The notes beneath the pieces are model-generated. The model made no database searches and was not told the DNA's origin. It worked only from the letters and a program-made list of their open reading frames with translations. A DNA stretch of 64,000 bases from an uncultured delta proteobacterium (GTDB lineage: Bacteria > Desulfobacterota > Binatia > UBA9968). How positions within the stretch are numbered: the first letter of the stretch is position 1; each line of letters starts with the position of its first letter. Location of the stretch: the NCBI GenBank assembly GCA_963816145.1, contig CAWFJP010000030.1:352001-416000 (forward strand), in the 5' to 3' direction. The position numbers and the translations under genes were made by a program. Shown here in pieces: positions 2,261 through 30,620 of the stretch.

Positions 2261-2267
2261 GAGACCC

Positions 2268-2876
2268 TCATCTCCCCCGTTCGCGCCGCTTTTTTTCGAT
2301 TTGAATGTCCACCTGCTTGGATTTCTCGATCAACTGCTTGGCCTTCTCAAAATCCTGGCGGGATTTTTCAAGTTCCAGCCGGGACTTTTCGGCTTCCTGT
2401 TTGGAGCGTTCGGCGGCGCGCCGGGATATTTCAATTTCTTGCTTAGACTTCTCAGCCTCGATTTTGGTTCGCTCTATTTCTTGTATTGTCGCATCTATTT
2501 CGTCTAGAATACCAGACCAGACCTTAGCCGGTTCGGCAAAGCGGCTCTCTGGATACTGCGTCAGCACCCGTTGAAATGAACCAAGCGCCTTCTGCCGATC
2601 CTTGCGTGGATTCTGCGGGTGTGCGTACACGACCCCAATATAGAAATTCGCCGCATCCGCCGGCGGTTGATCCTTGGCGATCGCGATAACATTTTGAAAG
2701 GCGTTGAGCGAGCCCTCATAGTCACCGCGAGCGAGCAACTGCTGACCTTGGGTCAAGGCTTCGCGCAATTCCCGGCGCCGAATCGATTCCTGAAATAGCC
2801 CGCAGCCCGAAATGATTATCAGCAGGGCAAGACAAAAACAAATTTGCTGCCACTGCCCAATTGGCTTTCCGCCCAT
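2268..2876 (-). CDS. TPR/coiled-coil lipoprotein (positional QseG analogue)
   Basis: Lipobox IISGC, TPR-like helices, long Glu/Lys coiled-coil tail; lies between kinase and regulator genes; start uncertain. Confidence 0.8.
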   Translation of the reverse strand: MGGKPIGQWQQICFCLALLIIISGCGLFQESIRRRELREALTQGQQLLARGDYEGSLNAFQNVIAIAKDQPPADAANFYIGVVYAHPQNPRKDRQKALGSFQRVLTQYPESRFAEPAKVWSGILDEIDATIQEIERTKIEAEKSKQEIEISRRAAERSKQEAEKSRLELEKSRQDFEKAKQLIEKSKQVDIQIEKKRRERGR

Positions 2877-5710: not shown

Positions 5711-6775
5711 TCAGCGCACCGCTGGCTGCTGTTGCGTGACGCAGTGAATCGCGCCTAAACCGGCCACCACTTCATTGCAGCGCAGGCCGATTATTTTTCG
5801 CTTGGGAAAACATTCTTGCAAGAGTCCCAGAGCTTTATGGTCGTTGCCATCGTCGAACACCGGCACGAGCACGACCTCGTTGGCGATGTAAAAATTAGCG
5901 TAGCTCGCCGGCAGCCGCGCGCCGTCGTAGAAAACCGGCGCCGGACAGGGCAAGCAAACGATTTCTAACTTCTTGCCGTCCTGATCGCGGGCGCTCTGCA
6001 AGCGCTCGTAGTTTTCTTGCAAGAAGCGGTAGTTATCGTCATGAGGATTTGCCTCGACAATACATGCAACTACCGTCGGATTGACAAAGCGCGCGATATC
6101 GTCGATATGGCCGTCGGTATCGTCGCCGACAATCCCTTCGCCGAGCCAGAGAATCTGCCGTACGCCAAGCGATGCTTTAAGAAAATCTTCGATCTGCGTG
6201 CGGCTCAAATTTGGATTGCGATTGCGGTTGAGGAGGCACTGTTCGGTGGTCAGACATGTTCCACTGCCGTTCACTTCGATGGAACCGCCTTCAAGGATCA
6301 ATTTGTGCTCGAACACCGGCAATTGCAGAAGCTCTGCGATCGCGCGCGCCACCCGATCGTCTTCCTCGTAAGCTTGGTACTTGCCGCCCCAACCGTTGAA
6401 GATCCAATCGTTGAACGCCAGCGGCCGGTCCGTGGCGTTCCGGGTGACGAATGTCGGGCCGTAATCGCGCATCCAGACATCGACCGTGGGGATCTCCAGC
6501 AGGGTCACATTGTTCATTGCCGCTTTGGCGCCGTTGAGCCGCGCCGCCAACTGTGTTTTTGCGGCGCCATCGTTGACCAGCAAGTAAACCTGCTCGTGGG
6601 GCGACAGCGCCGCCACCATCTGCACCCAGATGTCCCGGACTTTTTCCAAGTCGGTCGGCCAGGTTTCTAAATTATGCGGCCAGGACAGCCAGGTGGCCCG
6701 ATGCGGCGCCCACTCGGCCGGCATGGAATAACCCAAACTAGTAGGCGTGGATGAACTCGGGAATGAATTTGCCAT
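5711..6775 (-). CDS. aguA: Agmatine deiminase family protein
   Basis: MPAEW, WMRDYGP, EGGSIE, DTDGHID, C-terminal GAIHCVTQQQP. Confidence 0.93.
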   Translation of the reverse strand: MANSFPSSSTPTSLGYSMPAEWAPHRATWLSWPHNLETWPTDLEKVRDIWVQMVAALSPHEQVYLLVNDGAAKTQLAARLNGAKAAMNNVTLLEIPTVDVWMRDYGPTFVTRNATDRPLAFNDWIFNGWGGKYQAYEEDDRVARAIAELLQLPVFEHKLILEGGSIEVNGSGTCLTTEQCLLNRNRNPNLSRTQIEDFLKASLGVRQILWLGEGIVGDDTDGHIDDIARFVNPTVVACIVEANPHDDNYRFLQENYERLQSARDQDGKKLEIVCLPCPAPVFYDGARLPASYANFYIANEVVLVPVFDDGNDHKALGLLQECFPKRKIIGLRCNEVVAGLGAIHCVTQQQPAVR

Positions 6776-6800
6776 GGAATGCTGTTTTCAATCTGAGGGA

Positions 6801-7685
6801 TTAGCGGTCGAGCGAACGGGTCAGTAACGCGCCGTACGCGTCGATACGCCGGTCGCGCAGAAACGGCCAGGCTTGGCGCGTCTCTTCGATCTTGCTGAGA
6901 TCGCAATTGGCGATGAGAATCTCTTCCCGCTTTGCGCCGGCATGGGCAACGATCTCGCCCAGCGGCCCGGCGACAAACGAATTGCCCCAAAACCTGATCT
7001 TGCCTTCGCTGCCGACGCGGTTGACCGAGACAACGTAAACCCCGTTGGCGATCGCGTGCGAGCGCTGTATCAACTCCCACGCGTTGCGTTGATTCCGCGC
7101 CACGGTGCGCGGCTCCTTCGGTATCCAGCCGATCGCTGTCGGATAAAACAAGATCTGTGCGCCGCCCAGCACCGCCGCCCGCGCCCCTTCGGGAAACCAC
7201 TGATCCCAGCAGACCAGCACCGCGATCCTGGCGTAGCGCGTCTGAAAACTGGGGAAGCCTAGATCGCCGGGGGTGAAATAAAATTTTTCGTAATAGAGCG
7301 GATCGTCGGGAATATGCATCTTGCGGTACTTGCCGGCAATCGAACCATCGGCATCGAGCACCACCGCAGTGTTGTGGTAGATGCCGGCTGTGCGCCGCTC
7401 GAAGAGCGACGCGACGATGACGATTTTCTTTCGCCGCGCCACCGCGCCTAAAACTTCCGTGCTCGGCCCGGGAATAGGTTCAGCAAGCTTGAAGTTACGA
7501 GGGTCCTCGCTCTGGCAAAAATAACGCGAGCGAAACAGCTCCTGCAGGCAGACGATCTTGGTGCCCTTCTTGGCCGCCGCTTCAATGCGTTGCACGGCTT
7601 TGGCGAGATTGGCGATGGGGTCGTTGGCGCAGCTCATCTGCACCAAGGCAATTTTAACTTGCTCGGGATTTTTCGTTCTTGCCAT
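6801..7685 (-). CDS. aguB: N-carbamoylputrescine amidase (carbon-nitrogen hydrolase)
   Basis: Nitrilase triad E (LQELF), K (YRKMHIP), C (VCWDQWFPE); adjacent to aguA. Confidence 0.88.
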   Translation of the reverse strand: MARTKNPEQVKIALVQMSCANDPIANLAKAVQRIEAAAKKGTKIVCLQELFRSRYFCQSEDPRNFKLAEPIPGPSTEVLGAVARRKKIVIVASLFERRTAGIYHNTAVVLDADGSIAGKYRKMHIPDDPLYYEKFYFTPGDLGFPSFQTRYARIAVLVCWDQWFPEGARAAVLGGAQILFYPTAIGWIPKEPRTVARNQRNAWELIQRSHAIANGVYVVSVNRVGSEGKIRFWGNSFVAGPLGEIVAHAGAKREEILIANCDLSKIEETRQAWPFLRDRRIDAYGALLTRSLDR

Positions 7686-7722
7686 GATGCCGGCTAATCT
7701 AACTGAAATAGCTCAAAGAAAC

Positions 7723-7763
7723 AAAAAAAAGGGAGGGGAAAAGTAACCACCTTTCCCCTCCCT
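7723..7763 (-). terminator. Rho-independent terminator downstream of dienelactone hydrolase gene
   Basis: Hairpin agggaggggaaa...tttcccctccct with an A-run on the + strand (U-tract on -). Confidence 0.75.
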
Positions 7764-7782
7764 CGGACTGCGCTACCCTGAA

Positions 7783-8502
7783 CTATTTAAGATGCTGCGC
7801 GAAGAAACTCTTGGTCTTTTCCCAGGCATCGGCAGCCGACTTTTCATGATAGCTGCCGCGCTCGTCGCAGAAAAAGCCGTGGCCCGCGTCGGGATAGATC
7901 TTCATCTGGAACGGCACCTTTTTGGTCGTCAATTCGGTATTGATCTGACCCACCTGATCCATCGGGATCAGCTGATCCTTGGCGCCAAAGAATAGATACA
8001 TCGGGCATTTGATCTCGCCGGTGCGCGACAACGGGCTCGGATTGCCCATGGTAATGCCGCCGCCGTAATACGGCACCGCGCACTTCACGTCATTGGCGTG
8101 ATGCGCCGCGCTCAAATAGGTCAAGCGTCCACCCATGCAGAAGCCGACCACGCCGAGAGAACCGGATTTGACGTTGCTTTGCGATTTCAAGTGTGCGATC
8201 GCCGCACTGACATCTTCCATCGCCTTGGGATCCTGCACCCGCTGCAGGGTCGCAATCGCCTTGGCCATGTCGGAGAACGGAATCACCCGCTCCGCCTCGC
8301 GATGAAAAATATCCGGGCAGATCGCCACGTAGCCTTCGGCCGCGATCCGATCTGTGACTTTCTTCATGTGATCGTTCACACCAAAAGCTTCCTGTATTAC
8401 GACGATGCCCGGATAACTGCCGCCTTCCTTCGGCTGCGCCACGTAGGCATCCATCTTGCCGTCAGAAATGTTGAGTTGAACAGTAGAGTTGGAAACGTCC
8501 AT
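7783..8502 (-). CDS. Dienelactone hydrolase family protein
   Basis: QEAFGVN, nucleophile GFCMGG, AGHGF. Confidence 0.92.
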   Translation of the reverse strand: MDVSNSTVQLNISDGKMDAYVAQPKEGGSYPGIVVIQEAFGVNDHMKKVTDRIAAEGYVAICPDIFHREAERVIPFSDMAKAIATLQRVQDPKAMEDVSAAIAHLKSQSNVKSGSLGVVGFCMGGRLTYLSAAHHANDVKCAVPYYGGGITMGNPSPLSRTGEIKCPMYLFFGAKDQLIPMDQVGQINTELTTKKVPFQMKIYPDAGHGFFCDERGSYHEKSAADAWEKTKSFFAQHLK

Positions 8503-8602
8503 CGGTACCTCCTTAGATTCGTGAATGACAGTTCAAAGTGGATTTTGTCTATCAAATTTCGCCGCAGCGGTCCACACCTCATCGAGGCGACTTCAGGAAA
8601 AT

Positions 8603-9451
8603 TCAATCATGCTTGCGGCAGAACTCGAGAACCCGATCGACCACTGTTTGCGTCGACTGCTGCGGCGGCATGACGTTCCAAAATTCGTTATTGGGCAGTA
8701 ACTCCCGCAGGTAATGCGCGCCCGAGGTCGCGTGGGACGGGTCGTCGCCGGGGATGATCAGCGACGGCGTCTTGATTCCCATCACCTCTTCGGGCTCGGC
8801 GCCGGGTGCGGTGTCGCGGTCAAACAAAGTTCGGCCGCTAGTGATCATCATCCCCAGGTAGTGTTCCAAATCTTGCTTGACGAAGCGGTCGGCGAATTCT
8901 TTGTCGCGCGCGATCATCCCGGCCCAGGGACCGGTTTCCGGGTCGAGCCAAAAACTTTTCTTGTCTTGGGCGCGCTCAACCACGCCTTTGAGCCCATTTT
9001 GTTTGGCAAACTCACAGTGGCGCATGAAGCGCGCCTGGCTGTTGGCCTTCCAACGATAGCCGCCCACCGGCCAATGCAGCAGCAAGCCACGGGTCGCTTG
9101 CGGATAATGCACGCCGAAAGCGAGGGCCATGGAACAACCCATGCAGCCACCGAGAATCCAGGCCGAATCGATCTTCAGATGATCGAGCAACGCTTTGCCA
9201 TGACGCGTGAAAGTCGCCCAGGTCAATCGCTCGACCCGCCCGCCGGACTGGCCGCACTCGCGCCGGTCGTAGACTATCACCCGATGCTCTGCCGCGAGCG
9301 CTTGGATCGCGTCGATTCCCGTCCAGGCGCTCGCCACGCGCCACTTATCGATTGTCGCGTCGAACCCGCCCGGCGCGCACATTAAAATCGCCGTTCCCGA
9401 ACCATGAACCTCATAGTAAGTGTCAATCCCATCGACATTGGCTAGCGGCAT
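8603..9451 (-). CDS. Alpha/beta fold hydrolase with Cys at the nucleophile elbow
   Basis: YDRRECGQS, elbow GGCMG; alternative start at 9457. Confidence 0.85.
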   Translation of the reverse strand: MPLANVDGIDTYYEVHGSGTAILMCAPGGFDATIDKWRVASAWTGIDAIQALAAEHRVIVYDRRECGQSGGRVERLTWATFTRHGKALLDHLKIDSAWILGGCMGCSMALAFGVHYPQATRGLLLHWPVGGYRWKANSQARFMRHCEFAKQNGLKGVVERAQDKKSFWLDPETGPWAGMIARDKEFADRFVKQDLEHYLGMMITSGRTLFDRDTAPGAEPEEVMGIKTPSLIIPGDDPSHATSGAHYLRELLPNNEFWNVMPPQQSTQTVVDRVLEFCRKHD

Positions 9452-9563
9452 GAGCATCTCTCCTTTGGTTTGCTGGACTTCAATAACTGCGACCAGTAAG
9501 ATTTAGCACGCTGCCCGCTCGGAAGGAAAGTTCGCAAGCCCATGCAGCGCGGAGGCAAGATCT

Positions 9564-10379
9564 GTGAGCGATCGCGACATCGAAGTGAAATTCACTGAAC
9601 TGCTCAATGTCATGACGCAACTGCGCAGCGACAACGGTTGCCCCTGGGACAGGGAGCAGACCCACCTCTCGCTCAAGCCCTGTTTGCTCGAAGAAACCTA
9701 TGAACTGCTCGAAGCGCTGGACGACGGCGGCGCGAAAAAGGTGAAAGAGGAGCTGGGCGACGTGCTGCTCCAGGTCGTCTTTCATTCGCAGATCGCCAGC
9801 GAAGAAAACCGTTTTACCATCAAGGACGTGATTGAAATTCTTATCGACAAGTTGGTGCGCCGGCATCCCTACGTCTTCGCCGGCGAACCGCTGCCGGAGG
9901 ATCCCGCCGCCGCGCTCAAACAGCGGGCGCAGCTCAAAGCCAATGAAAAGAAAGACGGCGAAAGCAGATCAGCGCTCGGCAACGTGCCCAAAGCGATGCC
10001 GGCGCTGGCGCGGGCGCAATCGATCTCGCGGCGCGCCGCCAGTTTGGGCTTCGAATGGCCGAGTATCGATCAGGTCTGGGCCAAGGTCGACGAAGAGATG
10101 CGCGAACTCAAACAAGCCGTCGCGTCCGGCGACAAAGTCCACACCGGCGAGGAGCTTGGCGACCTTCTCTTCACTATGGTCAATATCGCGCGTTTTCTCG
10201 ATGTCGAATCCGAGGCGGTCCTGGCGCAGACCATCGAACGATTTACTCGGCGGTTTCACCACATCGAAGCCAAGCTGCGCCAAGCCAACAAAGATTTCGC
10301 CCAATCGTCCATCGACGAAATGGACCGCTACTGGGACGAAGCGAAAAAACTCGAAGCCCAAGGGAAGCTCGCGAAATGA
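9564..10379 (+). CDS. mazG: Nucleoside triphosphate pyrophosphohydrolase MazG
   Basis: CPWDREQT, EETYE, two EELGD motifs, tandem MazG domains. Confidence 0.93.
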   Translation: MSDRDIEVKFTELLNVMTQLRSDNGCPWDREQTHLSLKPCLLEETYELLEALDDGGAKKVKEELGDVLLQVVFHSQIASEENRFTIKDVIEILIDKLVRRHPYVFAGEPLPEDPAAALKQRAQLKANEKKDGESRSALGNVPKAMPALARAQSISRRAASLGFEWPSIDQVWAKVDEEMRELKQAVASGDKVHTGEELGDLLFTMVNIARFLDVESEAVLAQTIERFTRRFHHIEAKLRQANKDFAQSSIDEMDRYWDEAKKLEAQGKLAK

Positions 10380-11353
10380 GCAAGCCGCAAGCAAGCATTG
10401 TTTTTCTCGACGCCGCCACCTACGGCGACATGCCGCTAACGGCATTCACCGAGACTTGGCACTGCAAGGTGCATCAAGTGACAAACGCCGCACAAACTGG
10501 TGAGCGACTAGCGGGGCACGCCATCGCCGTCACTAACAAAGTCGTCATTGACGAAGCGATATTGAATTCCACCGCCGTCCGCGAGCTGAAGCTTATCGCC
10601 GTGGCCGCCACCGGCACCGACGTCATCGACAAAGGAGCCGCAAGCAAACGCGGCGTCAAAGTCTGCAATGTGCCGGGCTACGCCAGCCAATCGGTGGCCC
10701 AATTTACCATGGCGCTGATCTTGGAGCTGGCCAGCCGCGCCAACAGCTATGCCGCCGCCGTGAAAGCCGGTGAATGGCAGAAGAGTCCGATTTTCGCTCT
10801 CCTAACATTTCCGAACATGGAACTCGCCGGCAAGAAACTTGGCATCATTGGTTTCGGCAACATTGGCAAGACGGTGGCGCAGATGGCGCGCGGCTTCGGC
10901 ATGGAGATCCTCATCGGCGCTCGCCCCGGAGAGCTGACACCCGGAGCAGATCGAGTCCCCTTGGCAGAGCTATTTCGCCAAGCCGATTTCATTTCGCTGC
11001 ACTGCCCGCTGACCGCCGAGACGAGAAATTTGATCAACGGCCAACCTTTGGCGTCGATGAAACCGAGCGCATTTCTAATCAATACCGCCCGCGGCGCTCT
11101 GATCGACGAGCCGGCGCTGATTGAAGCGCTAAGCAACAAGCGCATCGCCGGCGCCGCCCTCGATGTGATCACGCAAGAGCCGCCGGCCGCCGATCACCCG
11201 ATCATCCGCGCCGCCTCCGAGTTGGACAGTCTCATCGTCACGCCGCACACCGCCTGGTCGGCGCGCGAAGCGCGCGAGCGGCTGTTAGTGGAAGTCAAAA
11301 CCAACATTGAAGCATTTCTGCGCGGCGAGCCGCGAAATCTTGTGGCGCAATAG
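10376..11353 (+). CDS. D-2-hydroxyacid dehydrogenase (glycerate dehydrogenase/HprA-like)
   Basis: ATG overlaps mazG stop (ATGA); GIIGFGNIG, INTARG, TPHTAW. Confidence 0.9.
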   Translation: MSKPQASIVFLDAATYGDMPLTAFTETWHCKVHQVTNAAQTGERLAGHAIAVTNKVVIDEAILNSTAVRELKLIAVAATGTDVIDKGAASKRGVKVCNVPGYASQSVAQFTMALILELASRANSYAAAVKAGEWQKSPIFALLTFPNMELAGKKLGIIGFGNIGKTVAQMARGFGMEILIGARPGELTPGADRVPLAELFRQADFISLHCPLTAETRNLINGQPLASMKPSAFLINTARGALIDEPALIEALSNKRIAGAALDVITQEPPAADHPIIRAASELDSLIVTPHTAWSAREARERLLVEVKTNIEAFLRGEPRNLVAQ

Positions 11354-14166: not shown

Positions 14167-16092
14167 TTAGCGTTTGCGCTCGATGCCGAGCGCTTTCATG
14201 CGCGAGCTGAGCGTCGTCGGCTTGATGCCAAGCAGGGTCGCCGCGCCGTTGGCGCCGGCGACTTTCCAATCGCTCGCTTCCAGGGCGACGACGATATTTC
14301 CCCGCTCCAAGTCTTCGAGCTCTTTTGCGGTGAGCACGCGCTTGGCAGCGGCTTCGCCTCCGGCCGCGGCCGCGGCGATCACGCCGATGCTTTCCGGCAG
14401 CGCCCGGTCAAGATTGAGTTTGCCATCACGGGCTGTGATCACGGCGCGTTCGATGATATTTTGCAGCTCGCGGACGTTACCGGGCCAGCGATAGGCTTCA
14501 AGGCGGCGGATACAATCCGCCGAGAGCGGTTCGATCGTCCGCCCCAGGCTCTTGGCGAATTTTTTCACGAAGGCCCCGGCCAGAGCGCCGATATCGCCGC
14601 GCCGTTCGCGCAGCGGCGGCAGCTCAATGGGAAAAACATTCAAGCGGTAATAAAGATCTTCGCGGAATTTACCCTCGCCGATGGCGCGTTGGAGGTCTCG
14701 ATTGGTGGCGGCCAAGACGCGCACATCGACCTTTCGGGTCTGCGAACTGCCGACCGGCTCGAACTCACCTTCTTGCAAGACCCGCAGCAGTTTACTCTGC
14801 AAGTCCAAAGGCAGCTCGCCCACTTCGTCGAGAAAGATCGTGCCGCCATGGGCCATGGCGAAGCGGCCATCGCGCTTCTTAGTGGCGCCTGTAAAGGCGC
14901 CCGCTTCATGGCCGAACAGTTCGCTCTCTATCAATGTCGCCGGAATCGCCGCGCAATTAACTTTGATGAGCGGCTTGTTGTGGCGTCGGCTGGTGCGGTG
15001 GATGGATCGCGCGATCACTTCTTTTCCCGTGCCGGTTTCACCGAGAATTAAGACCGTCGCATCGGTGGCCGCAACCTCTTGCGCGTCATTCAAGACTTTT
15101 AACCAAGTCGAGCTCTGGCCGACAACGCCATCGGCACCCACCAGCGTTTTGATTTCTTCGCGCAAATATTCGGTCTCGACGGTGAGGGAATGTATCTTGT
15201 TCTCCGCTTCGATGCGCTCATTCACATTGCGCAGAATGAACGTGTAAAAAGGTTCCCGCTCGACATCAAAGCGCGCCAGGGTCGCTTCGGCTTGAAAGGG
15301 TGCGCCATTGCGAGCGATAGCGTTAAAACCACCCGGAACCCACAACGACCGCTGACCCTCCGGCCGGGTATCGAGATCGACGATCAAACGGGCGAGTTTT
15401 TCGCGTGCGTCGGGCACGAGAAAATGGCTGAAGGATTGCCCGATAACCGCGGCAGCGCTGCAGCCGAAAACTCGTTCCGCCGCCGGATTCATCTGCGTGA
15501 CCGCCAAATAGCGATCGATCTCAACGATCGCGTCCATGGCATTGCCGACAAGCCGGCCCAGCTTTTGTTCGCGCTCGCGCACCTGAGTCTCAGCCCGCAA
15601 ACGGCGCAATTCGGCGGCTGCCCTGGCGGCGAAGATCTGGAATAAAGCCTGCGTCCTCGGCTCAGCCGGCATGGGCCGCTTGTCGAGGACTGCGAGATGT
15701 CCGAGAATTTTGCCATCCAAGTCCAAGAGCGGCATGCCCATATAACTCGCCGCTCCGACTGCTTTGACATCGGGGTCGTCCCAATAAATGTTCAGCAAAT
15801 TGTCCGGGATATGAATCAAACAACGCTGATCGATGACTCGTTCGCAGGGAGTTCCGTCGACGATCATCTCCCAGCCATCGAGCCACTGATCACCCATCCA
15901 GAAAGCCAGCGCCTTGAGCCGGCGCGATTCGGGGAAGTATTCCGTCACCCAGGCGCCGTGAGTACCGAGCGCCTCGGCAAGATTTTTCACCAACGCCCGA
16001 AAAAACTCGGCGCCGGTTTCAGTTGCGGTTCCTTCCAAGATCGTGCGCAGGGCGGCATCGACGTCGATCTTTTGCAGCGGCGAACGTTCCAT
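14167..16092 (-). CDS. Sigma54-dependent activator with GAF and PAS domains (FhlA-like)
   Basis: [50 protein letters not shown]. Confidence 0.92.
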
Positions 16093-24078: not shown

Positions 24079-24118
24079 AAAGGGGGCGGGCACAAAGCGA
24101 GCTGTGCCGCCCCCTTTT
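24079..24118. terminator. Bidirectional terminator between dksA and the convergent secreted-protein cassette
   Basis: aagggggcgggcaca...tgtgccgcccccttt hairpin with A/T runs on both sides. Confidence 0.75.
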
Positions 24119-24142
24119 AATTCAGCGCTTGTTAGCGAAGGG

Positions 24143-24499
24143 CTATTCGCCCTTGGCAGGGACGAAGGTCATCTTCGAGAGGAAATTCTTCTCACCCTTG
24201 GTGACGTACTCGACAGTGGCCGATGAGCCAAGTCCGACGTCGCTCATCTTCGTTTTCGATTCGACGATTTCAGTCGCCTTGGTTTTAGCGTTGTAGTCCA
24301 AGGTGACCAGCTTGCCATCCTTGGTAACCACGATCATGTAGTTCTTTTCAGTGTCCAACAAACCGATGTCACCGGAAACTTTTTCCGCTTTAGCCTTGGC
24401 CGGTTCGGCCTTCTTTTCTTCTTGTGCCATTGCTGGCAAGGCAAGAGATGCTGCGGCGATAACCGCGACCGCCCCGACAATTTGGTTATTTATTTTCAT
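24143..24499 (-). CDS. Secreted small beta-rich (OB-fold-like) protein, PAKGE family, copy A1
   Basis: Sec signal peptide (PAMA-Q), core GDIGLLDTEKNYMIVVTKDGKLVT, ends PAKGE; three paralogues in the window. Confidence 0.85.
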   Translation of the reverse strand: MKINNQIVGAVAVIAAASLALPAMAQEEKKAEPAKAKAEKVSGDIGLLDTEKNYMIVVTKDGKLVTLDYNAKTKATEIVESKTKMSDVGLGSSATVEYVTKGEKNFLSKMTFVPAKGE

Positions 24500-24549
24500 A
24501 TAACTCTCTCCTTCTGATGCGTCTTTAGTCGGCAGTTCTTCAAGCGACC

Positions 24550-24960
24550 CTATTCGCCCTTCGCCGGCAGATACTCGATACTCGAAGCGATACTCTTGTC
24601 GCCGACTTTTGTATAGACGACCGTTGCCGCCGAACCAAGGCCGATGTCGGCGATCTTAGCAGGTTTGAACTCTCGCTGAATCGGCTGAAACTTCGGATCG
24701 TAGTCAACCGTCACGAGCTTGCCCTCTTTCGTGACGATAATCATGTAATTTTTTTCGGTGTCCAAGAGCCCTACATCGCCGGCTATCTTGGTTGCCTTTG
24801 CCGCTGGTGCTTTTGCTTCGGCCTTCGCCTCAGTCTTTGCGGCTGGTGCTGGTGCCGGTGCCGCAGGTTTGGCGGCCATCTCCTCTTGCGTCGAGCACGA
24901 CGTAAAAGCTACCGACATCGCTACCAATGCCACTCCACTCACTGACACCAATCTGTTCAT
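24550..24960 (-). CDS. Lipoprotein, PAKGE family, copy B1
   Basis: Lipobox FTSC, Pro/Ala/Lys linker, same core domain, ends PAKGE; RBS GGAGG. Confidence 0.85.
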   Translation of the reverse strand: MNRLVSVSGVALVAMSVAFTSCSTQEEMAAKPAAPAPAPAAKTEAKAEAKAPAAKATKIAGDVGLLDTEKNYMIIVTKEGKLVTVDYDPKFQPIQREFKPAKIADIGLGSAATVVYTKVGDKSIASSIEYLPAKGE

Positions 24961-25085
24961 CGTTCCTCCCTACTGAGCTAAATTTTCTAATATTTGTTTC
25001 ATTTACTTATCGTGACCCAGATGGTTATCTCAATACGCTTTAAGTAGGAATTTTCCTCAGCCATTGCGAAACACGGCTATCATGG

Positions 25086-25101
25086 TAGGACTTAAGTCTT
25101 A
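25086..25101. promoter_or_regulatory. Palindromic operator TAGGAC-TTAA-GTCTTA (candidate NarL-family RR site)
   Basis: Near-perfect 16-bp palindrome in the divergent intergenic region; related copies at 28115, 30605 and 25034. Confidence 0.65.
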
Positions 25102-25193
25102 CAGCATAACATTTAAGCAAAATCGCCTATTTGCACCCTTAATTATTTGATGTATGCGTAATTAAGCGTAAGTGAAAGGCGGAGAGACTTGCT

Positions 25194-25856
25194 ATGGCCC
25201 CGATCAAAGTCGTGATTGCCGATGACCACACCCTCTTCCGCGAGGGATTGCGCAAAATCTTGTCTCTGGAAAAAGACATCCTCGTCGCAGGCGAAGCATC
25301 GAATGGCGAGGAAGCCGGCAAATTGGCCGAACGGATCAAACCGGATGTCTTGCTCATGGATCTCAAAATGCCCAAAAGCGATCTGGTGCAGAGTCTTCTC
25401 GAGATGAGTACATCGGCGCCCGCTACTAAAGTTCTCGTCCTTACCGCCTTCTCTGACGAAGAAAACGTCCTAAACGCAGCCAAGAGCGGCGCACGCGGCT
25501 ACGTTACCAAAGGTGTGCCCACGACCTCTTTGATTCAGGCCATTAAAACAATTTACGGCGGCGGCACCTGGGTCGATAAGGACATCCCCTGCTGGCAGGC
25601 TTTCGAGGAAATCGCCGGCAATAACACCGGTATGACTCGCGCCGTCACGCCGCTCGGCGATGAAAGCATTCAGTCGCTAACTAAACGCGAGCTGGAAATC
25701 CTAAAACTCGTCGCCGAGGGGCTGACCAACGAGGAGATCGGCAAGAAAATCTTTATTAGCGAGAAAACCGTCAAGACTCATTTAACCAATATCTTTGACA
25801 AACTTAAGGTGAATAACCGTTTCAAGGCGGCTCTGATGTTGATGGGGCAGCCGTAG
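25194..25856 (+). CDS. NarL/LuxR family response regulator
   Basis: ADDH, LLMDLKMP, LuxR HTH LTKRELEIL...TVKTHLTNIFDKL. Confidence 0.94.
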   Translation: MAPIKVVIADDHTLFREGLRKILSLEKDILVAGEASNGEEAGKLAERIKPDVLLMDLKMPKSDLVQSLLEMSTSAPATKVLVLTAFSDEENVLNAAKSGARGYVTKGVPTTSLIQAIKTIYGGGTWVDKDIPCWQAFEEIAGNNTGMTRAVTPLGDESIQSLTKRELEILKLVAEGLTNEEIGKKIFISEKTVKTHLTNIFDKLKVNNRFKAALMLMGQP

Positions 25857-25988
25857 AATTAGTCCACAGACCCGCCCCTACAACGCGGCGGTTTGTGCAG
25901 GATTCGGCGCGCAAAACACGCTAAACCCATCAGGTTCCACGGATCATGATGAACATGATTGGATAATCTAACGATCACCCACGCCGGG

Positions 25989-27230
25989 ATGTCTATGACA
26001 CCGACAACGGATAACCAACACCCGACCCAGCTGGAACACGAATGGTTCCGCGAACGCGAACGCGCCGCGTCTTGGTTGCGCCTGGCGTTCGCCGTGATTG
26101 CTATCTTCGTGATCCAACTTAATCCGTCACGCGTCGCTCGTTATCCCTCGTTGTCGACGGTCGCTCTAATATCGTTCTTGATCTATAGCGCCGGCGCGGT
26201 TTGGTTGGTCTGGAAAAACAAGTTTCCGTTCATTTCTCTGGGGCCGATCAGTACCGCACTCGATACCATTTGGATCGCACTAATTGTTATTTCCACCGGC
26301 GGCACCAGAACGCCCTTTTTCATTTACTATTCGTTCCCGGTTATTACCGCGAGCCTGCGATGGGGCCTAAAAGGCAGCCTGCCGGTCGCCGGCATTGGCG
26401 TCGGCATCTACATCGCTATCCGTCTCACCCTAGCCGCCGAGTCCATCAGCGAGCCGATCGGCATCGACACCATCGTCGTGCGCAGCTTCTATCTATTCGC
26501 TCTCGCCGGTATTTTCGGATACGTCAGCGAGTTCGAACAAAAGCAAAATCGCAAGCTGCTGGCCTTCTCGCGCGCCGCCGGCGAGTTGGCGGCATTACAA
26601 GAGCGCCAGAGAATTATGTACGAGCTGCACGACGGCCTGCTCCAATCGCTGGCGACTATGATCCTGCACGTTGAAAGCTACCGGGCTCGGGCTCGATCGG
26701 GCGAAACAGCAAAGGAGTTAGCCGGCGAGCTCGGACAGTTAGAAGACATGTCCCGAAAAACCATGAACGAGATCCGCCAGTTTCTCGCCGGTAAAGAACC
26801 GACGCCGATCGCGCCGGGTACGCTGATGGAGAGACTCAAAGACGAGCTGCGCTTTCTCCAAGGGCTGGGCATCGAGGCTTTACTCGAATCCGATCCGGAA
26901 GAGCTCATTTTGCCGCCGGAGATCGAAAGAGAACTCTACTATGTGTTGCGCGAGGCGCTGACCAATATCACCCGTCACGCGCACGCGACGAGAGTTGCCA
27001 TAGATCTGCGCCAGAGAAATGACCGGGTCGACGGCTCGATTGAAGACAATGGCGTCGGCACGGATCTCTTTCGGGGTGTTCACGGTAACCGCGTCGGCAT
27101 GGCCAGCATGCGCGATCGCATCGAAAAAAAAGGGGGAGGATTCGAACTACAATCCTCCCCCGGGCACGGCTTCAAAATTATTTTTTCAGTCCCGCTAGAC
27201 TCGCCGAACCGGTTAGCGGTCAATCAATAA
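25989..27230 (+). CDS. Membrane-embedded sensor histidine kinase (HisKA_3)
   Basis: Five to six TM helices with short loops, ERQRIMYELHDGLLQ, EALTNITRHA, DNGVG; start uncertain (25959/25989/25995). Confidence 0.9.
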   Translation: MSMTPTTDNQHPTQLEHEWFRERERAASWLRLAFAVIAIFVIQLNPSRVARYPSLSTVALISFLIYSAGAVWLVWKNKFPFISLGPISTALDTIWIALIVISTGGTRTPFFIYYSFPVITASLRWGLKGSLPVAGIGVGIYIAIRLTLAAESISEPIGIDTIVVRSFYLFALAGIFGYVSEFEQKQNRKLLAFSRAAGELAALQERQRIMYELHDGLLQSLATMILHVESYRARARSGETAKELAGELGQLEDMSRKTMNEIRQFLAGKEPTPIAPGTLMERLKDELRFLQGLGIEALLESDPEELILPPEIERELYYVLREALTNITRHAHATRVAIDLRQRNDRVDGSIEDNGVGTDLFRGVHGNRVGMASMRDRIEKKGGGFELQSSPGHGFKIIFSVPLDSPNRLAVNQ

Positions 27231-27287
27231 GACTCAACCCAAAAGCGCTCGCCCCACCTTACCTGCACGCCAGCGGACGATGCAAAC

Positions 27288-27638
27288 TTATTCACCCTTG
27301 GCAGGAACAAAAATCATCTTGGTGAGAAAGTTCTTTTCACCTTTGACAACATATTCCACTTGCGCGGACGAACCGAGTCCCACATCGGACATCTTCGCCT
27401 TCGTGTCGACAAGTTGGGTCGTCTTGGTTTTCGCGTTGATATCTACTGTGACAAGTTTGCCATCCTTGGTCACGACGATCATGTAATTCTTTTCCGTATC
27501 GAGTAAACCGATATCGCCGGCTACTTTCTCGGCCTTGGCCTTAGCTGGCTCAGCCTTCTTTTCCTGCGCCGCTGCTGGCGTTATCCAAGCCACTACCGCA
27601 GCAACTGCTATTCCGATTAACAAGTTCTTAGATCTCAT
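27288..27638 (-). CDS. Secreted small beta-rich protein, PAKGE family, copy A2
   Basis: Signal peptide (AAA-Q), mature part closely matches 24143..24499, ends PAKGE. Confidence 0.85.
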   Translation of the reverse strand: MRSKNLLIGIAVAAVVAWITPAAAQEKKAEPAKAKAEKVAGDIGLLDTEKNYMIVVTKDGKLVTVDINAKTKTTQLVDTKAKMSDVGLGSSAQVEYVVKGEKNFLTKMIFVPAKGE

Positions 27639-27695
27639 CCTCAGTCTCCTTATTAATTATTACCGCAATCCCACAGTAAAGAGTCGGCAGCCAAG

Positions 27696-28097
27696 TTACT
27701 CGCCTTTTGCCGGCAGGTACTCAACGTTGGTAGCGATATTTTTATCGCCTTGCTTAGTGTACGTCACGGTCGCCGACGACCCCAAACCTATGTCTGCGAC
27801 CTTCGACGGCTTTGGTGACCTCATCGTCGGCTGAAATTTAGGATCGTAATCCACCGTCACGAGCTTGCCATCTTTGGTGACGACAATCAGGTAATTCTTT
27901 TCAGTATCCAATAATCCGATGTCGCCGGCAATTTTAGTTGCTTTCGCCGGTGCCGCTTTCGCTTCGGGTTTTGCTGCCGCAGCAGGCGCAACCGGTGCCG
28001 GCTTGGCGACCATCTCCTCCTGCGACGAGCAAGCACTGAGCGCGAAAGCGAGCCCAACCACCGCAGCGGTATTCGTAATCGATAAATAATTTTTCAT
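27696..28097 (-). CDS. Lipoprotein, PAKGE family, copy B2
   Basis: Lipobox LSAC, closely matches 24550..24960, ends PAKGE. Confidence 0.85.
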   Translation of the reverse strand: MKNYLSITNTAAVVGLAFALSACSSQEEMVAKPAPVAPAAAAKPEAKAAPAKATKIAGDIGLLDTEKNYLIVVTKDGKLVTVDYDPKFQPTMRSPKPSKVADIGLGSSATVTYTKQGDKNIATNVEYLPAKGE

Positions 28098-28114
28098 TGA
28101 TGCCTCCCAGTTAT

Positions 28115-28130
28115 TAAGACTTAAGTCTCG
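28115..28130. promoter_or_regulatory. Palindromic operator TAAGAC-TTAA-GTCTCG
   Basis: Second copy of the motif, located between predicted promoter and RBS of B2. Confidence 0.6.
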
Positions 28131-28146
28131 TCTCTACGTCATTCGT

Positions 28147-28176
28147 CGTATACTTTACGAAGCGTCGGGTTGTCAA
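28147..28176 (-). promoter_or_regulatory. Putative sigma70 promoter of the B2-A2 operon
   Basis: TTGACA-18 nt-TATACG on the minus strand. Confidence 0.55.
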
Positions 28177-28826
28177 GCGGATAAACCAGGATTCTTAAAA
28201 TGGTCGATTTTTTTGCCTAGATAATTGGTTTTACAGAGGGGAATGACCTGGCCAGCAGCAATAACCATTACCACACTTCATTCCGAGATATTCCGACAAT
28301 CGAACGCGACACTTAGTTGCGACAAAAGGCCTTGATGCTATTTAGGCAACTAAGCATGTGAGGTGCGCTGAGAACGCTTGGCTAAAGCTGGCTCACTCGC
28401 GAATGCCAACACTTCACGACTCACAATCCGCACCAACATCAGGCTTTCATCACGCAACGCGAAGCCCTTGGAAAGCCAAATATCACCATTGCAACCAAAT
28501 CCTCTATTTACCCCAAACTCATCTCGTCCTCGATGAATGATGATGGCTATCAAACCAGGCGATCATACCTGCAATCCAAAAGCGATGGCCCCACGCGCTC
28601 GCTCCAAGCAACATCTCGCTGCTCTCAGGTAGACCGTTCAACTCGCTCATAGCCATCCGACATCGCCAGCTCAGGATCGTTAGAATGGCAGCGAGACAGC
28701 CAAATTTGCAACTCGACTCAAGCCAATCGCGCAAGCGGTTCCAACCTCAACCTGGACATCGCCTCCACACCCTGGTCAAGTTGGTATTGATCTCACGCCC
28801 GTCCCGCACAAGGTCCACGCGAAACA

Positions 28827-28859
28827 AAAAAAAGGGGAGCCCATGGGGCTCCCCCTTTT
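28827..28859 (-). terminator. Rho-independent terminator of the porin gene
   Basis: aaaaggggagccc-atg-gggctcccctttt with poly-A on the + strand. Confidence 0.8.
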
Positions 28860-28887
28860 CGCTATATCACTTCTGCGGAGTTACAGC

Positions 28888-30429
28888 CTAGAAGGTGTAA
28901 CGCCAGTTCAAAGCCACCGTTACCCAGTCGCCGCCAACGCCACGCCGGCAATCGGTCGCGCCAGCGACTCCTACTTTGTCACAAATCCCAAGCGCATATC
29001 CAGCTTGGTTGGTGCGGTTGCCCAAGTTCGAGGCGTCATACCACAAGAAGTTCGCGCCTATGCTCATGCGCGGGGCGATGAAATACCATATATCCCACTC
29101 ACGGAGCAATATGCGGTTACGGTGGAATTGACCCAGCAGCGAGGTAGGGCCACCGCAAGCCAAAACACCGAAATCATTACAACTACTTGATATGTCGGTC
29201 CGCTCAAAGTGCGTGCCGACTAGGACTGAGCCAGTTTGGGTTGCCGACCCCGTCAGCCAGCCCTTTGGGCTCCACAAAAACAGGTCGTGACCGATCAACC
29301 AGTCATGAGCGCGTTTCTTACCAACCGAGCCGCCCTTGTCAGCGGCCTGCAAAAACTGAGTCATGGCACGCAGGGTGTAGGGCCCGACGTTCCACACCAA
29401 GCCTGGTCCAATCGCGATAGCGGTTCCTTTACCCACGCTGTCCGCCCCGGTGTCAAACAAGGACTGCCGGCCGCCGTCGCCATGATCCTGAATCCGGAAA
29501 CGTTCGAGGCAGACGGCGGAGCCCTCAGAGGCGCTGGGACTTCGGGTGTCGTTGTTACAGAACCAGGCGCCAGTCTCAAAGGTCAAGCCGCTGATCCATT
29601 TGTTCTTGACTTGCGAGAACGGCTGGATATTGCCGTACACGTTGAAGTTCTGACGGTCCGACATGGTCTGCGTGCCGTCGTCGCCTTCGGCGCTTGTCGA
29701 CATGCTGAATTGCAGCCTGCCGATGCGGCCGGGGATGCCAATGCCGCTTAGGCTTCTATCATCCCAGTTGAACGTCGCACCGCTGCCCGCGCGGCCGGTG
29801 TTGAAACCGTTGTTGCGGGTGAGCAAGTCATACTCCATCTGTGCGCCGGTGCTACCCGAGCCCTGACGAGACAAGCTGCTGCCTGAGGCATTTTGCACTT
29901 CCATGCCGAACTGCACGGTCGGCAACCATGGGCTGATGTCTTCGCCATGGAAGTAGACCGCGCCGCGCTGCAACATGGACCCTACGCCGGTCGCTTGGTT
30001 GTTCTTGCCGTTACCCGTGCCCCAGCCGTCGAGGTCGAGACTCGCTTCCATTTCCCACAAGCAGTTGTTGATGCAATAGAAGATACTCGGGCGGAAACGC
30101 CGGCCCATGAGCTGGCCGTTGGTCCGACCCTGCTGGTCGCGCCCGTTCTCAAAATTGTAGCGGAAGTGAGATTCCAAGGAGAACCGCAGCCCCCACGCCT
30201 TGTCCGCCGCCTCGATATTCACACCGTTGCCGGGACGATACGAAAACGAGGGCATCGCTGCTGCCGCCGCCGTCGCCTCCTTCTTCAGCTCGATCTGCTG
30301 TTCTTTTAGCTGCTGGAGTTCTTGCTCGAGCACACTGATCTTGTCACTGACGCTCTGGGCTTGAACCGTCCCCGCAGTTAAAAGGAAAGCAGCTAGCATG
30401 CTGGCTAACCACATTTTCTTTCTCATCAT
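28888..30429 (-). CDS. Outer-membrane beta-barrel porin (OprO/OprP-like architecture), Cys-rich loops
   Basis: Signal peptide, N-terminal coiled coil, amphipathic strands, C-terminal beta-signal WRYTF; eight Cys. Confidence 0.78.
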   Translation of the reverse strand: MMRKKMWLASMLAAFLLTAGTVQAQSVSDKISVLEQELQQLKEQQIELKKEATAAAAAMPSFSYRPGNGVNIEAADKAWGLRFSLESHFRYNFENGRDQQGRTNGQLMGRRFRPSIFYCINNCLWEMEASLDLDGWGTGNGKNNQATGVGSMLQRGAVYFHGEDISPWLPTVQFGMEVQNASGSSLSRQGSGSTGAQMEYDLLTRNNGFNTGRAGSGATFNWDDRSLSGIGIPGRIGRLQFSMSTSAEGDDGTQTMSDRQNFNVYGNIQPFSQVKNKWISGLTFETGAWFCNNDTRSPSASEGSAVCLERFRIQDHGDGGRQSLFDTGADSVGKGTAIAIGPGLVWNVGPYTLRAMTQFLQAADKGGSVGKKRAHDWLIGHDLFLWSPKGWLTGSATQTGSVLVGTHFERTDISSSCNDFGVLACGGPTSLLGQFHRNRILLREWDIWYFIAPRMSIGANFLWYDASNLGNRTNQAGYALGICDKVGVAGATDCRRGVGGDWVTVALNWRYTF

Positions 30430-30484
30430 TGCCTCCTTTTGCCTCCCTGAAAATTGACTACTTAATTAGTCCTACTTCCGCCGT

Positions 30485-30513
30485 TTTTTAGCCTATGCAC
30501 CTAATTCTGTCAA
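30485..30513 (-). promoter_or_regulatory. Putative sigma70 promoter of the porin gene
   Basis: TTGACA-17 nt-TAAAAA on the minus strand. Confidence 0.5.
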
Positions 30514-30604
30514 GCCAAAAGTAGTAAATTGGAAAAGTATACCGATTATTTATAGGCTTTTAGTACCGGATTTGGCACTTTTAACCTACTCATTGACCAT
30601 CTGT

Positions 30605-30620
30605 CAAGCCTTAAGTCGTA
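30605..30620. promoter_or_regulatory. Operator-like copy CAAGCC-TTAA-GTCGTA upstream of porin
   Basis: 13/16 match to TAAGACTTAAGTCTTA, followed by an overlapping TAAGAC half-site. Confidence 0.45.

Follow-up and report, generated by a model that had tools for sequence, protein, structure and literature searches.

A two-component locus with duplicated lipoprotein and soluble protein pairs in an uncultured lineage of Binatia

Introduction

What might a bacterium do with two copies of an exported protein pair placed around a two-component system, in a locus that resembles no named system? The question is raised by a 64,000-nucleotide stretch of DNA (the window) from an uncultured delta proteobacterium assigned to Desulfobacterota, Binatia and UBA9968 (GenBank assembly GCA_963816145.1, contig CAWFJP010000030.1, positions 352,001 to 416,000 of the forward strand); coordinates given below are window positions unless a contig or locus is named. 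Between 24143 and 30429 lie four genes for small exported proteins, arranged as two cassettes of a lipoprotein (L) followed by a soluble protein (S), with a response regulator and a histidine kinase between the cassettes and a porin gene at one end. An original prediction, made from the letters alone, had described this arrangement and proposed that the tethered and soluble proteins are OB-fold-like subunits that partner the porin in the binding or uptake of a ligand or ion. The observation of a duplicated-pair locus around a kinase is real and well above chance. As to its meaning, the explanation that we favour, and hold tentatively, is that the locus forms a two-component envelope module confined to one lineage, probably autoregulated and with the two L and S pairs as its local regulon; uptake coupled to the porin is not supported as its core function. 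The clade has no cultured member according to the available text of the Binatota genome paper (PMC8262859), in which the words porin, two-component, lipoprotein, envelope and outer membrane are absent. Literature searches, whose scope did not include supplementary files, returned no description of the locus.

Two cassettes of paired small proteins flank a two-component system

Cassette 1 lies on the minus strand. It begins with L1 (24550-24960, 136 aa), a lipoprotein with the lipobox FTSC, an Ala/Pro/Lys-rich linker and a 79-aa core, and continues with S1 (24143-24499, minus strand, 118 aa), a soluble member of the same family with a Sec signal and an AMA/Q cleavage site. A response regulator of the NarL/FixJ type (25194-25856, plus strand, 220 aa; receiver and GerE helix-turn-helix domains) and a HisKA_3 histidine kinase (25959-27230, plus strand, 423 aa) follow, and cassette 2 returns to the minus strand with L2 (27696-28097, 133 aa, lipobox LSAC) and then S2 (27288-27638, 116 aa, AAA/Q site). 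Upstream of cassette 2, on the same strand, is the gene of an outer-membrane porin (28888-30429, minus strand, 513 aa) with a signal peptide, an N-terminal coiled coil and eight Cys. The rest of the window is housekeeping, with FtsK, LolA, RimO and DksA on one side and HisF and GcvT on the other. The open reading frames (ORFs) and a whole-length alignment bear out the four paralogous exported proteins of 116-136 aa that had been predicted, and the ORFs, lipoboxes and Pfam matches bear out their arrangement as two lipoprotein-then-soluble cassettes around an oppositely oriented NarL regulator and HisKA_3 kinase.

In the whole-length alignment S2 is 76% identical to S1, and L1 and L2 are 49% and 53% identical to it; over their coding parts cassettes 1 and 2 share 78% DNA identity, and their upstream regions are unlike. 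Within the 79-aa core, 39 columns are invariant among the four window proteins, and the shared sequences noticed at the outset, GD(I/V)GLLDTEKNY(M/L)I(V/I)VTK(D/E)GKLVT, D(V/I)GLGS and a C-terminal PAKGE, proved invariant or nearly so. In L1 and L2 the core is preceded by a lipobox and an Ala-, Pro- and Lys-rich linker of 30-35 residues, in S1 and S2 by a signal-peptidase-I-type site and a short Lys/Glu/Ala linker. Across loci, a lipobox was found by pattern match in 66 of 79 L-position ORFs and was missing from 77 of 79 S-position ORFs, and the misses are mostly ORFs cut by contig ends or given wrongly chosen starts. When L cores are set against S cores, 34 of the 79 positions have the same residue in the two groups at a conservation of 80% or more, and a single difference is fixed. 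Among the S cores (n = 37) the mean column identity is 83%, with surface-charged residues unusually conserved. The C-terminal tail occurs as PAKGE (71), AKGGD (47), KKGGD (7) and similar variants; ends in AKGE, KGGD or KGGE are found on no other ORF of the genome that carries the window (the host genome), which argues against a general sorting signal.

L is followed by S in nearly every locus. This order, the shared core positions and a natural fusion (P0241) in which a lipobox precedes an L-like and an S-like domain make it most likely that the two proteins work as a pair. In a quick tree of 67 rows the L proteins form one group (support 96) and cassette position forms no groups; the tree is weakly resolved, with 8 of 135 branches starred. 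A separate origin of cassettes 1 and 2 was considered and set aside, the two being unseparated in this quick and weakly resolved tree. At locus L034, in another genome, both cassettes are identical in their L cores and in their S cores, which suggests a recent gene conversion. As to domain architecture, in three further proteins (P0253, P0264 and P0267) the domain, present once or twice, is preceded by an additional N-terminal domain and a coiled coil rich in Glu, Arg and Lys, and some remote members of the family end in GGCPEG(R/Q)PCP.

Cassettes and kinase pair stay together within one clade

A small-protein profile found the family in 77 of the 90 genomes of one GTDB family; 22 of its 23 genera are represented, and among the high-quality genomes the count is 28 of 31. 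With the S2 protein as query, none of 16 genomes from the other two families of the order gave a match, and in a phylum-wide sample the count was 3 of 301 genomes, the host genome included. The host genome (7.8 Mb, 31 contigs) contains exactly four small-protein copies, with none found outside this locus. Public records that carry the locus are metagenome-assembled genomes, mostly named 'Candidatus Binatia bacterium' or 'uncultured delta proteobacterium', and the metagenome runs with this stretch come from soil, wetland and freshwater sediment.

Across 59 genome loci and 79 metagenome loci, the gene order is GcvT-HisF-(porin)-L-S-kinase-regulator-L-S-DksA-RimO. Some lineages have about 2 kb inserted before DksA, and the core of L-S, kinase, regulator and L-S is intact throughout. 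Among loci with at least 1.5 kb of flank on both sides, 26 of 29 from genomes and 12 of 13 from metagenomes have the kinase pair next to the family genes. Where the kinase pair is complete, it has family genes on either side in 24 of 25 genome loci and 10 of 10 metagenome loci. Of the loci in which the interval from HisF to the cassette is visible, 8 of 22 from genomes and 3 of 9 from metagenomes include the porin. Linkage of the homologues in other genomes, which the original prediction had made its touchstone, is therefore near-universal for the two-component system and occasional for the porin. A metagenome scan with remote members yielded the 79 loci, all in the same synteny, and with them no independent context. 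Outside the clade a single homologue was found, in genome G074 (E = 2.9e-17).

A palindrome is conserved in the cassette promoter regions

Operator A, a 16-bp palindrome (TAGGACTTAAGTCTTA, 25086-25101, assigned to neither strand), lies in the divergent intergenic region between the regulator and L1. Operator B (28115-28130, likewise unstranded; CGAGACTTAAGTCTTA on the gene strand) is a palindrome situated between a TTGACA hexamer resembling a -35 element and the Shine-Dalgarno sequence of L2. The decamer GACTTAAGTC is exact at 25089-25098 and at 28118-28127, and recurs with one mismatch at 30608-30617. Scored by the pattern TA[ACG]GAC-N4-GTC[TGC]TA over its 12 specified positions, the regulator-L intergenic regions match at all 12 in 25 of 37 cases and at 11 or more in 33 of 37; cassette-2-type promoters reach at least 11 in 25 of 31, the window's own copy scoring 10 of 12. 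Among the controls, a score of at least 11 was reached by none of 141 in-gene pieces of 230 nt from the same loci and by none of 185 shuffled intergenic regions. The arms of the palindrome are constant and its four central bases vary, and at locus L031 the two arms carry a matched change (TACAAC...GTTGTA).

By their sequence, the two inverted heptamers starting with TA and conserved at the promoters of the presumed regulon would have the arrangement of a NarL-type operator. We take an inverted repeat of two such heptamers (7-2-7) to be the usual site type of NarL-family regulators. The palindrome is found both ahead of promoter-like elements and within a leader, which speaks for a site on DNA and against an RNA hairpin, and Rfam gave no match at gathering score between 23500 and 31000, so an RNA element is not supported. 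Together, near-universal adjacency and this conserved palindromic operator tie the cassettes to the two-component system, as had been supposed. The further claim that the operator occurs in all three promoter regions stands for the regulator/L1 and L2 regions and falls for the porin, where the full palindrome does not exceed the controls and all that is conserved is a half-site beside TTGACA.

Promoter-like hexamers accompany both operators. Cassette 1 has a -35-like TTGAGA (25028-25033, minus strand), 52 nt upstream of which operator A starts; among the 38 upstream sequences shown, the conserved block AAAATC(C/A)TACCTAAAGCGTA stands before this hexamer. On the regulator side, operator A ends 29 nt upstream of a -35-like TTGCAC (25131-25136), and across loci this hexamer is conserved as TTGCA(C/T) or TTGGCA. 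The promoter-like element of cassette 2 (28144-28176, minus strand), composed of TTGACA (28171-28176), 18 nt and TATACGAC, is conserved in cassette-2-type upstream regions, and heptamers of the form TACGACG/AATGACG overlap its -10-like block. A genome-wide regulon defined by the palindrome was also considered and rejected: the count is at chance level, and the other sites (on contigs C3, C13, C5 and C17) lie beside or inside unrelated ORFs.

The kinase is of the intramembrane-sensing type

Both domains of the regulator match above the Pfam cut-offs (Response_reg, 5.7e-23 and 81.6 bits; GerE, 1.1e-22 and 79.8 bits), which identifies it as a NarL/FixJ-type protein, and the kinase matches HisKA_3 (2.7e-11, 44.3 bits) and HATPase_c (1.6e-10, 41.8 bits). 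Hydropathy analysis of kinase residues 35-190 gave five strongly hydrophobic segments and one weaker one, hence five to six membrane segments, separated by loops of about 5-12 residues. Because these segments are joined by short loops only and no extracytoplasmic domain is present, we assign the kinase to the intramembrane-sensing type; the predicted lack of a large periplasmic domain is thus confirmed, with no loop between hydrophobic segments longer than about 12 residues. The kinase pair is unique in the host genome, and the nearest paralogue of the regulator is 39% identical.

The nearest NCBIfam models are MadR, NarL, MacS (1e-23) and LiaS (7e-18), and no equivalog cut-off is reached (MadR 169 of 300 bits, MacS 84 of 300, MadS 66 of 500, LiaS 65 of 450). 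The closest curated models for kinase and regulator, all of them below cut-off, thus belong to envelope-stress or morphogenesis systems (MadR, MacS, LiaS). As far as the available portions of the literature describe them, LiaFSR, VraSR, MadRS and MacRS resemble the locus in several ways: the HisKA_3 kinase has several membrane segments and lacks a sensing domain, its partner is a NarL-type regulator, the operator is an inverted repeat, and the regulon is small, local and made up of envelope proteins. Unlike them, the locus has no LiaF/VraT-like accessory gene, a diderm host and another target family, and its scores fall below the cut-offs.

A putative envelope module with a local regulon

In the account that we favour, the membrane-sensing kinase would phosphorylate the NarL-type regulator, which in turn would bind the 16-bp inverted repeat TA[ACG]GAC-N4-GTC[TGC]TA. 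Operator A lies upstream of the promoter-like element of the regulator and kinase and is shared with cassette 1, a placement that would suit activation together with autoregulation; operator B and the heptamers over the -10-like block lie downstream of the strong TTGACA of cassette 2, which would suit repression. Each flanking operon is predicted to make an outer-membrane-type lipoprotein L and its soluble periplasmic paralogue S. Most likely the two would function together in the periplasm, providing an output of envelope homeostasis or envelope stress, and they may feed back on the kinase. The porin would be an accessory, lineage-restricted neighbour that may be co-regulated.

Several observations weigh against this account. 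The adjacency of cassettes and kinase pair is not independent across genomes, because all of the loci come from one clade and one syntenic position (FtsK-LolA-RimO-DksA/locus/HisF-GcvT); the count of 77 of 90 genomes includes four unpublished ones (G005, G359, G362 and G376) and becomes 73 of 86 without them; and at four loci (L061, L075, L077 and L146) family genes occur without an adjacent kinase pair. In the 7.8 Mb of the host genome GACTTAAGTC occurs four times and the degenerate 16-mer at five places, which is about the frequency expected by chance, so the evidence for the operator comes from its conservation. A generic sigma-70 scan flagged none of the promoter-like elements used here, and the proposed directions of regulation, activation in one case and repression in the other, were read from the positions of hexamers only and stay provisional. 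The predicted structure of the S2 core, described below, finds nothing in the PDB at E <= 0.001 with Foldseek. Finally, the RNA-library contigs that cover parts of the locus show neither level, strand nor start, and DNA carry-over may have contributed to them.

The locus is among the most conserved lineage-specific features of the clade, and its main products fall in no described family. With a single kinase pair, a defined operator of 16 bp and four proteins of only about 120 aa each, it offers a compact and tractable case. It might reveal the way in which a kinase that lacks a sensing domain connects to a diderm periplasm, and it could give the wider DUF5666-like group a first function. If L and S do bind a defined envelope component, a peptide or a cation, they might serve as markers of envelope state in soil metatranscriptomes. 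The uncultured host and the lack of a functional handle limit this interest.

The small proteins are remote kin of DUF5666 and CusF-like domains

No Pfam or NCBIfam model matched the small proteins. A word-indexed search returned 4184 proteins at E <= 0.001; the 120 of these that were listed are all without a precomputed Pfam domain, and they are called 'hypothetical protein' or bear plainly spurious names. An exhaustive search of 1.84 billion proteins with a profile of the four cores returned 95 cluster representatives at E <= 0.001, 51 of them at E <= 1e-10. With 4184 matches in the word search and 95 representatives in the profile search, the family appears populous but narrow. Weaker profile matches include multi-repeat proteins with 3-11 matching stretches each, and DUF5666 is above its Pfam cut-off in 11 of the 32 matches scanned, overlapped by sub-threshold rows for CusF_Ec and OB-type families. 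In P0263 (E = 6e-20, 7 stretches), P0282 (6.5e-13, 5 stretches) and P0299 (4.3e-9, 11 stretches), DUF5666 scores 94-187 bits. The ESM Atlas neighbours are hypothetical proteins of Candidatus Binatota (0.95-0.96), followed by DUF5666/CusF_Ec clusters (0.93). Profile search and ESM Atlas neighbours thus agree with the earlier guess of a DUF5666/CusF-like kinship, and on sequence grounds the L/S domain would be remotely related to these domains.

Membership in the families themselves was not found. DUF5666 (PF18914, gathering score 27 bits) and CusF_Ec gave no row at E <= 1 for the four window proteins, and neither of them matched 43 aligned members at E <= 1 among the 25 most-matched families examined; an hhalign comparison with a single DUF5666 sequence, that of P0282, was weak (probability 4%, E = 0.01). 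The metal site of CusF (PF11604) is likewise absent, the core alignment having no His, no Cys and no conserved Met pair, and the BOF/YgiW family gave no row at E <= 1 in Pfam or NCBIfam. The small proteins resemble DUF5666 (PF18914) and CusF_Ec (PF11604) in being exported domains of about 70-80 aa with the pattern G-x-V/I-x-x-V/L-D, a hydrophobic strand, G-K-x-V-T and G-x-x-V-x-V/Y. They differ from these in being single-domain proteins in fixed lipoprotein and soluble pairs, with a conserved K-G-(G)-acidic tail and without the CusF metal ligands. DUF5666 has no known function, and the literature that names it does so, in the parts available, in tables only.

The AF2 model of the S2 core (pLDDT 91.4, pTM 0.54) has strands at residues 4-10, 15-20, 25-29, 54-62 and 65-74, with a long loop that includes a short helix between the strands at 25-29 and 54-62. 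This order of elements is that of the OB fold. The model leaves the OB-fold subunits of the original prediction possible and no more: the predicted monomer superposes on an OB barrel no further than its first 38 residues and does not close into a CusF-like barrel, and a search of PDB sequences with the core profile gave insignificant rows only. Because the model matches no solved structure, the label 'OB-like' is drawn from sequence relationships and not from the model. The lack of a fold match might be explained if a partner chain completes the barrel.

Strand exchange comes into consideration because the confident monomer model does not close into a barrel, and with it a different view of the duplication. 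The two L and S pairs might be alternative isoforms of a heteromeric envelope sensor or effector, possibly strand-exchanged, that reports the state of the outer membrane or periplasm to the kinase; the regulator would then repress the strong cassette 2 and activate cassette 1, itself and the porin. We regard this as unlikely. If true, a single uncultured clade of soil bacteria would have invented an envelope-sensing circuit that is complete in itself.

A sensory role can also be drawn by analogy with NlpE/CpxP-CpxA, RcsF and LiaX-LiaFSR. L and S would then be accessory sensors that report the state of the envelope to a kinase without a sensing domain and are themselves feedback-regulated, an idea that we also place on the unlikely side. 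It would account for the missing periplasmic domain of the kinase, for the divergent arrangement of cassette 1 and the kinase pair with one operator between them, for the unusual conservation of surface-charged residues among the 37 S cores and for the presence of family genes on both flanks of nearly every complete kinase pair. There are precedents. In the CpxAR system the lipoprotein NlpE and the soluble CpxP modulate an envelope-stress kinase, and cpxP is divergent from cpxRA and autoregulated; the C-terminal domain of NlpE is OB-like. RcsF, likewise a lipoprotein, is small, has a flexible linker and associates with porins; its signal goes to the NarL-family regulator RcsB. However, CpxA has a periplasmic domain and the kinase of the locus has none, and L and S are paralogues of each other whereas NlpE and CpxP are not. 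NlpE appears in the Foldseek search with the S2 core as a weak row (probability 0.12-0.15), with no sequence or fold similarity shown. Moreover, periplasmic loops of about 5-12 residues would offer a partner little surface, and the four loci that have L and S without a kinase pair also speak against this role.

Small periplasmic beta-proteins under two-component control are further known from the BOF/YgiW family of OB-fold stress proteins (SipA/VCA0732; Salmonella YdeI/OmdA), whose members contact an outer-membrane protein. Salmonella YdeI is reportedly linked to OmpD. According to the available parts of two studies, SipA of V. cholerae binds antimicrobial peptides and interacts with OmpA (PMC6370654), and expression of vca0732 (SipA) depends on the kinase VC1639 (PMC5636140). 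Unlike these systems, the present locus has four genes in L/S pairs around an intramembrane kinase with a NarL-type partner, and its products show no BOF match.

The porin is an optional neighbour

No Pfam porin model, such as Porin_O_P, matched the porin; the one row was a sub-threshold match to DivIC over the coiled coil, NCBIfam gave no match, and comparison with PDB sequences gave insignificant rows only. At E <= 0.001 the protein has 1014 relatives; among the 120 listed, a precomputed Pfam domain is recorded for one (again the DivIC coiled-coil entry, of sub-threshold type). Its AF2 model, of moderate quality (mean pLDDT 65), consists of a helix at 27-58 followed by a beta-barrel of about 20 strand segments. 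The best Foldseek match of this model is OprP (2o4v, E = 8.8e-12, TM 0.65 on the target), next comes OprO (4rjw), and DcaP (6eus) is also listed; of the 201 PDB matches at E <= 0.001, the best 46 are all outer-membrane porins or channels, two of them engineered and OmpF-based. Together with a C-terminus ending in ...WRYTF, this identifies an OprP-like outer-membrane porin. The Cys-rich porin predicted upstream of cassette 2 on the same strand is supported at the level of fold by these matches, and five of its eight Cys are invariant among 36 relatives. The resemblance to known porins lies in the fold matches to OprP, OprO and DcaP-like proteins, the last of which have an N-terminal coiled coil comparable to the helix at 27-58; unlike OprP and OprO, the window porin belongs to no Pfam porin family and has the Cys residues just described, in a model of pLDDT 65. 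Since neither the small proteins nor the porin match a Pfam or NCBIfam model, the view that the locus has no named counterpart is sustained.

Downstream, an intrinsic terminator with a 15-pair stem and a T run (28828-28860, minus strand) stands directly after the porin gene, and a 790-bp gap (28098-28887) without any ORF longer than 71 aa separates the gene from cassette 2. A sub-threshold Rfam row for STnc320 lies over the terminator (28814-28865). A pseudogene of the roughly 480-aa neighbour found at other loci was sought in this gap and rejected, tblastn with the protein from contig C17 finding no remnant. Upstream, two promoter-like elements are present on the minus strand. In the proximal one (TACTACTTTTGGCTTGACA, 30508-30526) a heptamer resembling an operator half-site abuts TTGACA, and the distal one (TACGACTTAAGGCTTGACA, 30602-30620) contains the one-mismatch copy of GACTTAAGTC. 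Such elements, two in tandem and each reading TAC[GAT]ACTTT(T)[AG]G(G)C-TTGACA, in which an operator-like left half runs into a -35-like hexamer, occur in 7 of 7 porin upstream regions and are absent upstream of three porin paralogues. A complete shared operator at the porin was considered and rejected, as the full palindrome scores 9-10 of 12 in 7 of 7 upstream regions, within the control range.

Between HisF and the first cassette, an interval of 0.3-3.8 kb across loci, some loci have the porin, some an unrelated lipoprotein of about 480 aa and some nothing. This lipoprotein, of about 470-490 aa and with a GYFE(Y/F)RxPE motif, has the first L on one side and HisF or the porin on the other (L056:2065, L061:657, L034:1439); it is found in porin-less lineages or beside the porin, and it resembles the ORF next to the porin paralogue on contig C17. 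The host genome has three further porin copies, one of which is split into two frames: this paralogue (C11:88485-90009, 90-93% identical to the porin of the locus) is broken near 89430 by a frameshift or an assembly error.

These findings bear directly on the proposal that tethered L and soluble S, as OB-like proteins, work with the adjacent porin in the binding or uptake of a ligand or ion, which we judge decidedly unlikely. It draws on the position of the porin directly upstream on the same strand, on the TAC[GAT]ACT heptamer that abuts TTGACA in all seven upstream regions and at none of the three paralogues, on the anion-specific OprP and OprO as the best structural matches, and on the RNA-library contigs that cover both porin and small-protein genes. 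A further point comes from the homologue outside the clade (locus L090 of G074, contig C161, 1-5118), which lies directly upstream of genes for a TolC-like outer-membrane factor and a CusB/HlyD-type adaptor. But the porin is missing from most loci, where the lipoprotein of about 480 aa or nothing takes its place; with 8 of 22 genome loci and 3 of 9 metagenome loci, its own terminator and three paralogues elsewhere, it is not the fixed partner that had been predicted. It is set 790 bp from cassette 2, its paralogues have no small-protein copies beside them, those copies being confined to this locus, and the full palindrome at its promoter does not rise above the controls. Ligand or ion uptake with the porin also finds no footing in the small proteins, which lack His, Cys and the Met/His/Trp metal site of CusF, and the constraints on L and S sequences appear to be the same in porin-less lineages, which would speak against the proposal. 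In our view the module is not defined by the porin, which is a neighbour that may or may not be there and is possibly co-regulated.

In the G074 operon, a further ORF is open at the contig end, and a SelB gene lies nearby. The arrangement resembles that of cusCFBA, in a single case.

RNA-library traces and the remaining alternatives

RNA-library contigs cover 24106-24331, 24504-24654, 26863-27098, 27237-27902 and 28869-30536, and none lies in 24681-26723 or 28086-28766. By gene, they include parts of S1 (24106-24331), L1, S2 (27237-27660), L2 (27683-27902) and the porin (28869-30536). They come from four runs, counted as three because the pieces from X15 and X16 are identical. S2 and porin pieces were assembled even from libraries of 34-41 million letters. 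Such coverage would fit a porin and two cassettes that are all transcribed in soil and sediment.

That L and S are abundant structural proteins of the envelope, such as a tether from the outer membrane to the wall or a periplasmic scaffold, with the kinase pair only tuning the choice between the two isoform pairs, is highly unlikely in our estimate. The perfect TTGACA in the promoter-like element of cassette 2, the long Ala-, Pro- and Lys-rich linker of the L proteins, the invariant Lys near a conserved tail (PAKGE, AKGGD) that is unique among the ORFs of the genome, the near-universal presence of the family in the clade and the recovery of S2 and porin pieces even from RNA libraries of 34-41 million letters would all fit such a role. 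However, Pfam shows no peptidoglycan-binding domain or known tether motif, the RNA contigs cannot rank expression, and the idea takes its shape from an analogy with Lpp. Barely credible, finally, is a role as CusF-like periplasmic carriers that hand a substrate to an export system: the remote profile kinship to DUF5666/CusF_Ec repeat proteins and the G074 homologue at the head of a cusCFBA-like operon of OEP and HlyD_D23 genes speak for it, but efflux genes are missing from the locus and its surroundings, both in the window and at all 138 related loci, and the CusF metal ligands are absent.

Other regulators in the window and the host genome

Two sigma-54-dependent regulators are encoded elsewhere in the window (836-4261 and 14167-16092), one paired with a HAMP/HisKA kinase and the other with PAS domains; both are unrelated to the locus. 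A further response regulator of the sigma-54-dependent type is found on another contig of the host genome, in locus L087 (C17:196000-209000), at 6347-7711 on the minus strand of that piece. There, a porin paralogue (9563-11206, minus strand) is followed by an ORF for a lipoprotein-like protein of 489 aa (8047-9516, minus strand) and then by the regulator, the whole spanning 6347-11206. Upstream of the regulator gene, two perfect copies of TACGACTATAGTCTTA, a sequence of the same palindrome class as the operator, lie 189 bp apart at 7744 and 7933.

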